Source of the DNA: Eremomyces bilateralis CBS 781.70
Taxonomy: Eukaryota
Length of the DNA stretch: 38,161 nucleotides
Assembly: GCA_010015585.1 (NCBI GenBank)
Contig: ML975189.1
Strand: one strand, 5' to 3'
Made by a program: the position numbers and the translations under genes. The notes beneath the pieces are model-generated. The model saw nothing but the letters and a program-made list of their open reading frames with translations, made no database searches and had not been told where the DNA came from. Below, one piece after another: positions 3,104 through 35,545 of the stretch; the first letter of the stretch is position 1; every line of letters begins with the position of its first letter.

Positions 3104-5369
3104 TTAAAAATTGGCACCTCCAAGCTCCACGGCCTCAAAAACCTCGTCAATTTCCCTCATTAGCTCACGGTTGACATCCGCCGCTAGACCCATGCGAGGG
3201 CATTCGGATGTGCCGCTGTGACGATCACCCGGACCCACTGGGGCACTGGACGGCTCCGCTCGCTTGGTACGATCAACTCGTTTCACAATTTCCACATACG
3301 GAGGGGGTCGACGCTGCTGAGATATGTTGTGTTGTTTACGCTTCAACGTCGTACTCATCTCCAAGCGCCCGACATGGCCCAGAATGGTGTTCGGGGGAAT
3401 ATCCGTGACCGCTAAACTTGAAGCTACAGATTGTCGCAGTGATTCGGTAGATCCCTGAGCAGCACCAGATCTTCCTGAAGCGTTGTAAGGCGAGACAAAC
3501 GATGAAGTTCCACGCGGAATGATGTGCCCTGATAGGTCCGGTTTCATCATCAACCATTCCTCCTCACCCTCGTTGGTCCCTCGAAGGTCGCTTTCCGATC
3601 CGCTTCCCGATGGTCGCCAGTTTATATGATCACTATCCATGGAGAAGTCGGAATCCCCCTCAGAACTAGTCTCTGGGATTGGAGGCCGTTTCAATCGCTT
3701 TTGTCTAGGCATTCTTGAAATCGTCTGTGAAGCTCGCTTCAGCGACAATGATTCCGAACGACTTGCAGCACTGGAACCGATGGCCCTTTTACCAGGACGA
3801 ACGCTCGTCAGCAGCCAACCATAGTCACGAGCTGTCAAAATTTCGAATTTAGATGGATTGTCCTCGAGCGCTTTCGCAATGCTTAAATAGTGCTTTGAGA
3901 TCTCTGCGAACAGCACACCGGTCTGAATGGTTTCTCCGGTGCCAGAAATGGTCTCGAGCGGGTCCTCGAACTGACACCTGAGATGTTGGATTCGATTGAT
4001 ATAGGTATGAACCGATTCCCCCTGCTGTTCCTCTGCAGTGTTGTTGGAACCCAGCCGCTCACTATCGGGTGCTATACTTTCGACGAGTCCAAACGAAGAA
4101 GAACTGTCCGCGGGGGTCAGAGCTGGAATACTCTCGTTGCGGTCGGAAGAGCTCGCACTGGGCCGTTGGGTACGGTTCATGGTTACCGGAGCCCCTCCAG
4201 GCGTATGTCCCGATTGCGTCTGCGCTGTCAGATCGCGGTGTGGTACGAAGGCTGGTGATCCACAAGAATGATCACCCATAGGAGGAACGCTGCTCAGCCC
4301 GACTGCCTCCGCTGGCGAATACCGTTCCTCGTCAGAACCCACCGAGCACTCCTAGTATGTTTCTAATCGTTGCAGGGGGCGCCTGCTGGTCTGACTCTAT
4401 TGATCGGGCTTCCTCTCGGATGGCGTCGGTAGGCGACGAGAGACATGGCCGGATAATCCAGGAGTATAGGTCGAATCTCGTTCCGAATAGAGTCGGGGGG
4501 TATCGAGCGGTACAACCGAACATTCCGAATCAGATTCCTCGTCGACTAAGAACACCCTCTGCTGTGGTTGGTTGCTGGGTCGGCCAAGCCTTTTTCGGGC
4601 CTTGATCGGTGATTTGAAGCGGTATATAAATTCGGCAAACGGTCGATCTTCAGGATCGATGTTTTCAACCACATAGGAATGTCGATCGCGACTTCCATTC
4701 GACTTGGCACGCTCCCTCTCAAATTCCACACCAGCACATTTGTTGTCCGTAGCATCCTCGAGAAATTCCAACGAGTCCGACTCCAGAGGCTTCTCCCCAA
4801 GCATCCGAACTCGGTATGCCCGGACCGTGATCTTTCGGATCCGCTCGGGCTCCTCCTCTGGCTCTTTCGGAAACTTCCAACGATGAATAAAATCATCACC
4901 ATTCCGAGCAACCTCCCGATTGCCCCTGAAACAATCGGTGTACTCCCAATTACTTTCAGAAAAAGGCGCAGCATTGATTCGTTGAATCCCAAATTCCTCA
5001 TTGTCCCCAAATATGACTTCCCTTAACGTGAATTGAATGTTAGTGCCAGCCTGTTCTTCAAGGCTAAACGAAATTATCGAGGTGTTCTCACCATTGTACA
5101 TAGTCTGAAATGTAATTCAATTGTTTGGTGTGCACATGAAAGCGCGACCCAGGCGCCCTGGGGTTTATCCATATCGAGATTCTCCGATTAACAACGTCCT
5201 CGCGCCTATTGTCTTCGCGCAAACGCTCCCATAACCCGTCTTCTGCATGGTCAGGGACGAAAATAAAGCACTTGAAGCTCTGGTATTCGGGTATCTTGAA
5301 TAGAAGGGAGTGGTGTTGGGGGTATTGGAGAGACTGAGGAGTATCGAAGGCGGGCGTTTCTCGACGCAT
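3104..5369 (-). CDS. DUF7918-like hypothetical protein (paralog A) with a long disordered C-terminus; frame interrupted by two in-frame TAG codons
   Basis: Exon 5369-5092, intron 5091-5022 (GTGAGA...CTAAC...AAG), then one reading frame from 5021 to 3104 with TAG at 4399-4397 and 4354-4352; motif ENIDPEDRPFAEFIYRFKS resembles the DUF7918 C-terminal signature. Confidence 0.55.
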
Positions 5370-9379: not shown

Positions 9380-12410
<3,031 letters not shown>

Positions 12411-12669
12411 GGCGGGGGTGGAAAGGATGGGTGGGATGGATCAACAAACAAGGACCCTGAGATGCAGAAGAGTGAGCCAAGGTGTTCGAGAGGGAGATGG
12501 CTCGGTCCCTGATGATTGATGGTTCTGCGGTAAGGTAAAGTGAGGTAGAAGTTAGGTAGAAGTGCAGCAATGGCAAGTATTAATAGTAGCACTGAAGCCT
12601 TCCACTCTTCTTGTTAAGTGAACTTTCCTCCTCTCCCCCTCTCCCACGAAATGATGTTGAGTCGACAAG

Positions 12670-12686
12670 ACGCGTCAAGAAACGCG
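12670..12686. promoter_or_regulatory. MCB elements upstream of MCM3
   Basis: ACGCGT at 12670-12675 and ACGCG at 12682-12686, about 260 bp upstream of the MCM3 ATG; MBF control of replication genes is established in ascomycetes. Confidence 0.55.
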
Positions 12687-13120
12687 CTAATCCGATCGGG
12701 AATGGTACCGTACCAGAGCATTGCTTACATAGTACGTAAGTAATACCTAATCCGATGCGGTTGGAGCTACCAATTCATCCTTCATACCTCATACCTCATG
12801 CAGTCATGCTTCATACTTCATACTCACTCACTCGCTCATCATAGTGGACGGGAGGTCCTTTCGAGTTTCTATACCGCAAGATGGGGACAGTATTCGCGCT
12901 AAAGATGCAGAAATTGATCCAATCCGCTCAAAATCTATCAGAATCGCTCTTCCTTCGGTACGCGAGAGTGAGATTCAACTACGGAGTACTTCGGTTTGGT
13001 TCGGATCCATAATTCCATATTTCCATTGCTCTACGATTGTCACCAGATACGTCTTGGTAAAATCGTTCTGGAAAAGTTTGGACCGCTGCCCACTCTCGAT
13101 CCTATGTAAAAGACTACAGG

Positions 13121-13307
13121 TACGTCGTGCTCAAATGGTTGGGGGTCAGGTGATTTGGTGACAGCAGCAAAGTTGTTGTATTGTGTGAGTTGTGTGTTCT
13201 ATGTGAATGCCCGTTCCCTGGCCCTGCAGATATACGAGACTCATGGCAAGATTATTAATGCAGTTTGTAGCCTCAGGCCCCTGGATCTAATTCTTTGGCC
13301 TGCGACA
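13121..13307. mobile_element. Degenerate solo LTR, same family as 35332-35545
   Basis: Collinear similarity including the identical block GGCAAGATTATTAATGCAGTTTGTAGCCT and the TTGGCCTGCGACA end; left terminus eroded, no exact TSD. Confidence 0.75.
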
Positions 13308-13899
13308 GCGGGTTTGGGACGGATATTTGCGTTTTTGGAAAGTTTCAATCACGCTAATTTCATATGATAGCTTCGGGGAATCGAGGGCTAATGCCTTGGC
13401 GACAGGTCGAAACAAAGTTTTAGGCTGCGCTTCGGCGGAAGCCAATTTCGCTATTAGTGACTGTACCCACGCCGAGGCCATGCGGAGATGGGGTCGGAGA
13501 TCACATGCTATGTCTGCCTCCTTTCATATCCATATATGTTCCTGGGAATGTTATCTGCGCCTTAACGTGTATATGATTTCTTTGGGTCTGCAGGTTCCAC
13601 CGGTCCGTTGGAAACAGACGGAAAAACAGTAGTAGGGGCCTGAGTCTTTGGGTTCAAAGATCTGATCGTTCTGTCAAGTCCTTTCACGTCTATGCCGTTG
13701 CCAATCAATCACTCTCTATCCATGGTTCTATCCGAGAGGCCTTCATTGTGAAAGACCACAATAATGGCTCTCCCTTAGTTTCTGCAACAAATGGCGGACA
13801 CAAACGACTCTGGAGTGGTCCATTACCGCCTACGCAGGGCGAGATGGAACAGGCTAGGTCAATCTCAAGGCTAGACGGGTAATATATCTCGCCATGATG

Positions 13900-14776
13900 A
13901 AAGCCGGCCGACCTCGTCAAGGTGTTGAAGCGCCCACGCGCGCGCAAAGTCATTACACGCCAAATCGAACGCGGTGGTGACCAATTCGGCGAGTGGACAG
14001 GATGTTGGCTCGTCCGATCCGCGCTAAGGATCTGGTGGATCGACTGAAACGTTATCCGAACGTGCGAGAATTCTCGAACGCCCGGCTCCAACAAATCGCG
14101 GCGACCAAGGATGACGCGTCTGTACCGGAGTTCATGGCCACACATAAACAATCCTTTGATTTGCATCGGGTGGCTTTCCTTGCCTACCATGGTCGGCTTC
14201 CAGCGGGCAAGCGCGGAGTGAGCCACGTGTGCCAATGGATCGTGCTTCGCCGTTGAGTACTTACTCGACAAAGACCATGCGACGAACTTGGGTCGGATCC
14301 CGTGCGCCGGCATCGTCTACTGCCTAAATCACAAAAAGCTGCACCTTGTATTTGCGAGTTGCCATCACAAGTTCTTTGTCGGAAGCGGCACGACGATGTC
14401 CACTGATGCCTCACGGCGCAATCAGGTGTGGCCGGACCATTGGAACCAGGAGACGACCAGCAAACGTGGCTGCGGAGGGTGGAGGCGGATAACGTTCGAC
14501 CCGACACCTCGACGATGGGGGACCGGCTAGCCCAGGCTTCTCGACGCAATCCGATGGAATGAATCCCTCGAGCTCGCCTGGGATCACGACATCTACGGGG
14601 AGTCTGGTGATACCATGGACATCGAAGGTGGCATCCTCGAAGTGGCCGCCATCGAATCGGTCGTGGAGTGGGACCTGCCCGGGGAGAGCTCAAGCTGCGA
14701 TGATACCGACGAGCATTCGACGTCGACTGGAGATCGGGCGGACGAGGACGCGGACATGAAGATGGATGAGCCGTGA
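13900..14776 (+). pseudogene. Frameshifted His-Cys box (zf-His_Me_endon, I-PpoI-like) endonuclease relic with an acidic tail
   Basis: Joined across frameshifts: GEWTGCWL...LHRVAFLAYHGRLPAGKRGVSHVC/NGSCFAVEYLLDKDHATNLGRIPCAGIVYCLNHKKLHLVFASCHH/VLCRK, matching SHxCxNxxCxxxxHLxxxxxxxNxxRxxC...CxHxxxC. Confidence 0.75.
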
Positions 14777-15189
14777 CCTGAAGGTGGTGGGGATCACGCG
14801 TGGAAGGACTACATGGGCTGCTTCGAGGCGGAGCGGCGTGGCTTTAGTTCCCACTCCACTCCGATCATCACCTGGGCTCCCTAAGGAATGAGGACTGGAA
14901 TGGATTCTGTGGAGTTGGCAGTGCACACATCGAGATGGCATCTGACCACACTGCACAATCTGCCGTGATACCTGTCAGTGTACATACCGCAAGATCTTGA
15001 GACAATCTACCTAGACTGGAGGATCAGAATCCAACATAGTTAGCTCAAATTTATACACCTGTGAACGGATCAAATCAAATACCCATCCTGCGAAAGACCT
15101 TGCGGTATCTGATGAAGTACTTAAATCTCAGTCCTCGCTCCTCGGATGAGTCGGACACTCGGACAGCTGAGGCAGATCACCAGATCTCC

Positions 15190-15229
15190 AGATCACGTGA
15201 TCTTATATCTCTGACTCATGCACGTGCAT
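15190..15229. promoter_or_regulatory. Two palindromic E-boxes (AGATCACGTGATCT, ATGCACGTGCAT) flanking TGACTCA upstream of RPL40
   Basis: Seen directly at 15190-15203, 15212-15218 and 15218-15229. Confidence 0.45.
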
Positions 15230-15406
15230 AGCCCATCAGGCACCATTGCCACCATATCAGCGCCTCAGGCCACAATCCTCCGGAACATCGATTTTCCCGC
15301 GGCACAACCTCTCTCCCACTGGCAATTTCTTTACATCACCGCCGCATCCAACCCTACCGAACTGTATCGTCAAGAACCTCGCAACGCCGAAAGATCCACG
15401 ATCAAG

Positions 15407-16064
<658 letters not shown>

Positions 16065-16424
16065 TCGGGTTCGGTGGAGGGCGATGTGTGCCGACATGGG
16101 CATATCCGGCCGCATCTCGAACGAGTTTTCCCATCGATATGTGGCGGGATCTCTGCCCTTGACGACGCAAGAAACGGGGAACTGTGGCATACTCATCAGG
16201 CGCTTCTGAGGTTCGGAATTGTATTTTCCATTCAATGCAGACGATTATGAATATCCAATTTGCACCATGCACGTCCAACCCATCCATGTCTCGCCGGATA
16301 CGCCGCCTCCTCGCAAGTGACACCCTGATTGAACCATCCACGCGTCGCTAGATCCGCCACACATGCAATCACAGCAGTCTTTCACCACAATCCTTTGCAG
16401 CGCCTGTAAAACGTAGAATTCGAC

Positions 16425-35331: not shown

Positions 35332-35545
35332 TGTCGCACGTGATGTGCTAAAATGGTTGGGGTGAGGTGCTGTTGTTCCAGCAGCGAAGTTGTTTTATTG
35401 TGTGTTGTGTGTAAGTTGTGTGTAAGTTGTTTTTTCTAGCTGAATGCCTGGTCCCCCGGCCCTACAGATATACGAGAGTCACGGCAAGATTATTAATGCA
35501 GTTTGTAGCCTTGGACTCCTAGAGCTCATGCCTTGGCCTGCGACA
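35332..35545. mobile_element. Solo LTR (214 bp) with 7-bp terminal inverted repeats and a 5-bp TSD
   Basis: ACCAT|TGTCGCA...TGCGACA|ACCAT (TSD at 35327-35331 and 35546-35550); second copy at about 13121-13307. Confidence 0.88.

Follow-up and report, generated by a model that had tools for sequence, protein, structure and literature searches.

An I-PpoI-like His-Cys box nuclease relic between MCM3 and RPL40 in Eremomyces bilateralis CBS 781.70

The window, i.e. the whole stretch of DNA analysed, is 38,161 nt of Eremomyces bilateralis CBS 781.70 contig ML975189.1 and corresponds to C41:78415-116575 of the genome searched (26.9 Mb, 95 contigs). The 5' ends of MCM3 and of a ubiquitin-RPL40 fusion gene are separated by a gap of ~3 kb, which contains a solo LTR, a second small repeat and a nuclease relic. 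MCM3 is transcribed away from the relic. The genes and repeats bordering the relic are:

9457..12410, minus strand: MCM3, the left neighbour, with ATG at 12410 and Pfam matches to MCM and WH_MCM3_C.
13127..13307, plus strand: relic of a solo LTR whose abundant family has TG...CA ends and a 7-bp inverted terminus; the 5' end is eroded here.
13310..13467, plus strand: second small repeat relic; C6, C16 and C10 have partial copies of it.
15409..16065, plus strand: ubiquitin-RPL40 fusion gene, the right neighbour, read from the sequence.

The solo LTR at 13127-13307 bears out an earlier remark that the nuclease relic adjoins an LTR relic. Its family has dozens of copies in the genome; 43 of 44 non-self matches fit 13127-13307, a lower bound in which some matches are pieces of one copy. 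Another solo LTR of the family, 76% identical, lies at 35345-35545 upstream of a Zn2Cys6-type gene. The repeat at 13310-13467 is 73% identical to its copies over 162 bp and 88% over 57 bp. The MCM3 promoter region includes cell-cycle boxes resembling ACGCGT and a tandem array in which a 7-bp unit occurs 7 times (12668-12690 and 12774-12824), and two long minus-strand frames of 415 and 239 aa lacking a Pfam match are found to the left of MCM3 at 3104-5116. The start codon of RPL40 is apparently split (A / TG) by the first intron, which is followed by an 8-nt second exon (15409-15535; intron structure read by eye).

The nuclease relic is made up of five pieces, with frames numbered by start position modulo 3:

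13901..14011, plus strand: N-terminal piece, defined by frame reading and ending in a G-C-W motif (likely the first Zn ligand); CW precedes the core in the intact relatives P0004-P0008.
14034..14232, plus strand: frame 1; an insert specific to the subfamily, followed by the H-R motif and by SHxC with the general-base His; matched by HNH_3 (E 0.0022) and by a paralog on C24.
14234..14368, plus strand: frame 2; second half of the beta-beta-alpha-metal core and a Cys/His-rich second Zn region, with equivalents of C105, N119, R122 and C125.
14371..14562, plus strand: frame 1; contains VLCRK with the last Cys, an in-frame TGA (14404-14406) and a probable linker.
14558..14776, plus strand: frame 2; acidic tail ending at TGA 14774-14776, with codon-usage scores of +6.4 and +4.3.

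The motifs are GEWTGCWL (13988-14011, frame 2), LHRVAF (14161-14178) and SHVC (14221-14232) in frame 1, NGSCF (14234-14248) and NLGRIPC (14285-14305) in frame 2, and VLCRK (14371-14385, frame 1). Frame reading confirmed that these motifs, and the acidic tail up to the TGA at 14776, stand where the first-pass annotation had put them. The two frameshifts that it named are also present, but its count was too low, as there are four frame changes (14011-~14034, 14232-14234, 14368-14371 and before ~14560) in addition to the in-frame TGA. Stops at 13880 and 13895-13900 shut off the first piece on its upstream side; it lacks an in-frame ATG, and no paralog of it was found in the genome. No start codon was found for the relic gene. 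A codon-usage model trained on 2648 codons from the window genes traces the identical frame path through the relic, acidic tail included. Between 14371 and 14562 the model prefers frame 1 weakly, and homology support for that segment is lacking. The acidic tail has no Pfam match and no paralog in the genome; codon usage, its sole support, indicates that it was probably once coding, and the tail would then have been attached to the nuclease. RIP was considered as the cause of decay and rejected, as the values for TpA/ApT (0.42), (CpA+TpG)/(ApC+GpT) (1.06) and GC (0.56) give no RIP signature.

The segment 14221-14305 is in gap-free register with residues 97-125 of I-PpoI, provided that the break after SHVC is counted as one residue. 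The relic keeps S97, H98, C100, C105, N119, G121, R122 and C125 of I-PpoI. H110 is altered to Tyr, the codon at 14258-14260 reading TAC as had been pointed out, and E114 is altered to Lys (AAA). H110 and E114 are described as conserved in the I-PpoI-type group (PMC9587614). H98 and N119 are active-site residues, and C100, C105, H110 and C125 are zinc residues (PMC9548176). In the relic, the His98 equivalent in SHxC and the metal-binding Asn119 equivalent lie at the I-PpoI distance from one another, across one frame break. The first zinc site (C100/C105/H110) is incomplete, with both Cys residues present and Tyr for H110, owing either to decay or to a subfamily trait; the only close paralog, on C24, stops short of this codon. 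In the second zinc site C125 is kept, and a later C-x-H and Cys match the C132/H134/C138 spacing across a frame break, in a part that no profile aligns. We take C138 to be a zinc-site position of I-PpoI.

The separate natural frames of the relic were aligned with three other relics of the genome (see below), and the resulting six-row profile was matched to PDB. The only matches at E<=10 were five I-PpoI sequences (best E 6.1e-5). This match gives the register but not an independent score, because only two of the six rows stem from the relic. PF05551, proposed earlier as the profile for the repaired peptide, did not reach the relic either as repaired peptide or as separate frames, and the only match was to HNH_3 (PF13392), where the E value of the first frame given above became 7.5e-4 on reading through the break with X, at 18-19.5 bits against a cut-off of 24.8. 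BLASTP aligned the second frame to the intact relative P0004 with 10 of 29 residues identical (34%, E 5e-4); the first frame had no match to an intact relative. A genome-wide HNH_3 search (26.9 Mb) returned three places from three candidates, namely the relic (E 0.075), the C24 paralog and a PF05551-positive relic, all below the cut-off. With a profile built without window sequence, frame 14222-14527 was at the top of the non-training segments (E 0.016, 2910 segments), a result that is weak alone because the runner-up has E 0.095 and frame 13984-14250 is unlisted at E<=20. A DNA pattern of the I-PpoI Cys/His/Asn/Arg spacing, picked after the relic was known, has one match in the window, none in 714,383 bp from 80 other loci and two in 400 simulated windows. 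The residue register, the chance controls and the C24 paralog together uphold the initial reading of a decayed I-PpoI-type His-Cys box nuclease scattered over several frames.

No group I intron was detected by Rfam in 12400-15600, where the only matches were three chance ones to snoRNAs (E 2.9-9), and neither the window nor the four other His-Me loci of the genome gave a match at gathering score. The claim that the relic is outside rDNA and lacks a group I ribozyme therefore agrees with a scan of the window that was empty at that score.

The first frame matches one paralog in the genome, C24:95348-95530 (E 3e-7, 36% identity; reciprocal E 9.7e-7). At the DNA level, 14034-14232 and the paralog are 61% identical over 199 bp, the only gap (1 bp) being in the paralog. 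For the 64 codons compared, pS was 0.67 and pN 0.30 (corrected dN/dS ~0.23; Fisher p 1.5e-5), and because of this excess of synonymous change both the relic and the paralog must have been working genes under purifying selection long after they split. The C24 paralog is also broken, ending just past its His-x-Cys motif. The two occupy unlinked single-copy places. Three further His-Cys box relics were found:

C36:153091-153279: PF05551 E 9.6e-15; CW motif in a frame other than that of the core.
C10:410534-410704: PF05551 E 1e-5; contains stops.
C3:1888754-1888873: PF05551 E 1e-3; contains one stop.

The C10 and C3 relics are alike (52% over 31 aa). All five His-Me loci found carry stops or frame changes; they are spread over five contigs, each flanked by ordinary genes, and fall into at least three divergent groups. 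Because only top candidates are scored in the genome searches, these counts are lower bounds and an intact copy may be missed.

On C24, a ubiquitin C-terminal hydrolase gene that looks intact (Peptidase_C12) is followed after ~900 bp by the nuclease relic on the same strand, and the relic runs straight into a decayed copy of the last 190 bp of the hydrolase gene (core 73% identical over 82 bp, E 5e-9). This layout is at L022:3814-3913 and 5059-5219 (C24 ~94.3-95.7 kb). The local score of the hydrolase fragment was 100.5, compared with 49.8 +/- 5.2 in 300 shuffles. The genome has four ubiquitin C-terminal hydrolase loci, and the fragment did not match the other three. A hydrolase pseudogene of this family, interrupted by stops, is located at C10:185138-185257. 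The old hydrolase fragment is followed by two adjoining (nested) inverted repeats of 142 bp at 76% and 197 bp at 66% (L022:5213-5533), for which no copy was seen in the genome.

Close homologues outside this genome were not found: none of 78 candidates was at E<=1, a further 3 candidates gave none, and none of 114 stretches was confirmed. Among 1.84 billion representative sequences there were two matches, both to repetitive proteins without the motifs. Viral contigs held no homologue, phages gave 12 records at the chance level of E 0.8-1, and a PDB search with the relic gave one match (E 1.3). The relic profile, on the other hand, identified intact PF05551 proteins of 277-278 aa in 2 of 535 candidates, and five intact PF05551 proteins (P0004-P0008) are 266-295 aa long. 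The nearest Atlas clusters of the intact proteins are PF05551 families of 58 and 274 members, mostly eukaryotic and commonest in Ascomycota. The I-PpoI group, group 12 of the His-Me enzymes, is reported to hold 62 fungal proteins, in a source that does not give the group a section of its own (PMC5714182). No description of free-standing His-Cys box genes in fungal chromosomes was found in the titles and abstracts searched, subscription journals being outside their coverage.

The relic resembles I-PpoI (PDB 1a73; His-Me group 12, PF05551) in residue spacing and identity and in the upstream CW and H-R motifs. In contrast to I-PpoI, it has no intron and no rDNA around it, a long insert before the H-R motif, an acidic tail and changed H110 and E114, and it is broken. 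It shares its core with the fungal-type proteins P0004-P0008 and would have a similar length (~290 codons if the pieces join), but identity is 34% over 29 residues. The insert is without a database relative, and the relic is therefore assigned to a separate subfamily; it is a dead representative of this subfamily, which is apparently unsampled and belongs to a known kind of enzyme. Nuclear His-Cys box enzymes have been tied to intron homing (PMC9548176). KolobokP DNA transposons, described from animals, carry an I-PpoI-like nuclease outside an intron (PMC9587614), and WHO elements of Torulaspora and Lachancea are free-standing nuclear nuclease genes, mostly pseudogenes, that encode LAGLIDADG and zinc-finger domains and target FBA1 (PMC7282813). 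KolobokP, however, has a DDD/E transposase, long terminal direct repeats and multiple copies, which the window locus lacks. The likeness to WHO consists of a free-standing nuclear nuclease and, at the C24 paralog only, of the layout; at the window locus the relic is flanked by two 5' ends, and no fragment of a neighbouring host gene was found beyond the nuclease there or at the other three relic loci. Judged from its sequence, the relic is I-PpoI-like, yet is neither an intron-encoded homing gene nor KolobokP nor, at this locus, WHO.

Evidence of mobility was sought at the window locus. No DNA copy of 13468-15350 was found elsewhere in the genome, the interval has no direct repeat >26 bp and no inverted pair >19 bp, and in 12400-15400 there is no frame >219 aa and, in the 7 frames scanned, no Pfam transposase match. 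The suggestion of an element-borne nuclease marking an undescribed mobile element thus found no copy, long repeats or transposase-sized frame to stand on. KolobokP-type long terminal direct repeats and multiple copies were not found, nor was a target duplication (TTAA in KolobokP) apparent at a locus whose element ends could not be defined. The flanks of the relic and of the C24 paralog aligned with scores of 91.5 and 181, inside the shuffle ranges (maxima 121 and 200.5), and shared element ends were rejected on this basis. The LTR was rejected as the carrier, its family being unrelated and none of 14 copies examined having a His-Me match nearby. The relic had also been placed at a conserved intergenic site. 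In the best 80 of 117 MCM3 loci from metagenomes (39 of the 80 span >=4.5 kb upstream), none had ubiquitin/RPL40 or a His-Me match nearby, and the upstream neighbours differ. These loci are distant (<=76% identical on the exon used), and for this reason the survey withdraws support from the idea of a conserved site but cannot reveal an empty one. Neither an empty allele nor a target site nor an intact copy was observed.

The observations comprise active-site residues and zinc ligands spaced as in I-PpoI, long purifying selection of both paralogs and their present breakage. With moderate confidence, we interpret the relic as a pseudogene that once encoded a free-standing His-Cys box endonuclease, outside introns and rDNA, and that was a selfish homing gene before it decayed. 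By analogy, the intact protein would have been a zinc-stabilised homodimer with a long DNA site, His98 as general base and an Asn119-bound metal. In a cross, such a gene would cut the allele that lacks the nuclease, at its own locus or close to it, repair would copy the nuclease gene across, and occasionally it might land at a new locus; once cleavable alleles were gone, it would decay. Decay after homing is known for WHO elements (PMC7282813). The LTR and the second repeat would have arrived independently of it in this dispensable gap of 3 kb. The term selfish is suggested by the family and by the breakage of all five loci found. The relic itself is dead today and has no function.

Purifying selection followed by loss would equally suit an ordinary host gene that is dispensable. 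A family of dispensable host nucleases with a role in defence, non-self recognition or spore killing, which does not itself home but turns over through duplication and loss, would account for the long selection between paralogs, for an acidic tail and insert unlike those of the intron enzymes compared, and for the absence of mobility marks at the locus. We nevertheless hold it to be unlikely, given that all five loci are broken and mutually divergent, that no intact close relative was found and that the fold group, as far as its members have been characterised, consists of homing enzymes and transposon cargo.

The nuclease might instead have travelled as cargo in a DNA transposon or retroelement, either similar to KolobokP or of an undescribed kind, whose other parts have been deleted. 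KolobokP sets a precedent (PMC9587614), two repeat relics share the gap with the nuclease relic, and nested inverted repeats follow the C24 paralog. The missing transposase frame, long terminal repeats and second copy, together with flanks that align no better than shuffles and 14 LTR copies without a His-Me relic, make this origin improbable.

WHO elements at FBA1 leave the order host gene, nuclease, old 3' fragment (PMC7282813; bioRxiv 10.64898/2026.08.13.744650), and the C24 layout suggests a resemblance to them, in one case only. The subfamily could accordingly be imagined as a WHO-like homing element with a His-Cys box nuclease, which would insert at an ordinary gene without intron or intein, supply a new cut-resistant 3' end and push the old one downstream, the window copy having strayed and died. 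This proposal is decidedly speculative. At C24 the relic and the fragment meet at a deletion, and a tandem duplication with later deletion also explains the layout.

An intact gene, in which assembly errors or tiny introns mimic the breaks, is very improbable, even though the four frame changes sum to zero. Five breaks occur in ~0.6 kb beside unbroken frames of 698, 558 and 313 aa, and assembly error is unlikely given these long unbroken frames of neighbouring genes. Two conserved residues are changed as well, the break after SHVC leaves no space for an intron, and two runs, which may be the source of the assembly, contain 0.98-0.99 of the sampled words. Two other runs, X3 from a second isolate and X4, contain 0.81 and 0.62 of the words and carry no weight here, and no RNA run is on record as containing them. 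Motifs that arose by chance in intergenic DNA would explain why no piece alone passes a Pfam cut-off, but are effectively refuted by the existence of the paralog (E 3e-7, with codon-position bias) and by a pattern rate of 0.005 per simulated window.

The presence in a single small fungal genome of five dispersed, dead and intron-less copies, of which two demonstrably experienced selection, indicates that His-Cys box genes live outside introns. The C24 layout names the ubiquitin C-terminal hydrolase gene as a candidate target, and the WHO-like proposal, if true, would mean that replacement homing arose twice independently in eukaryote nuclei, the second time in filamentous fungi. These fungi would carry a class of natural selfish nucleases that has been overlooked and has new DNA specificities, if such genes do home.
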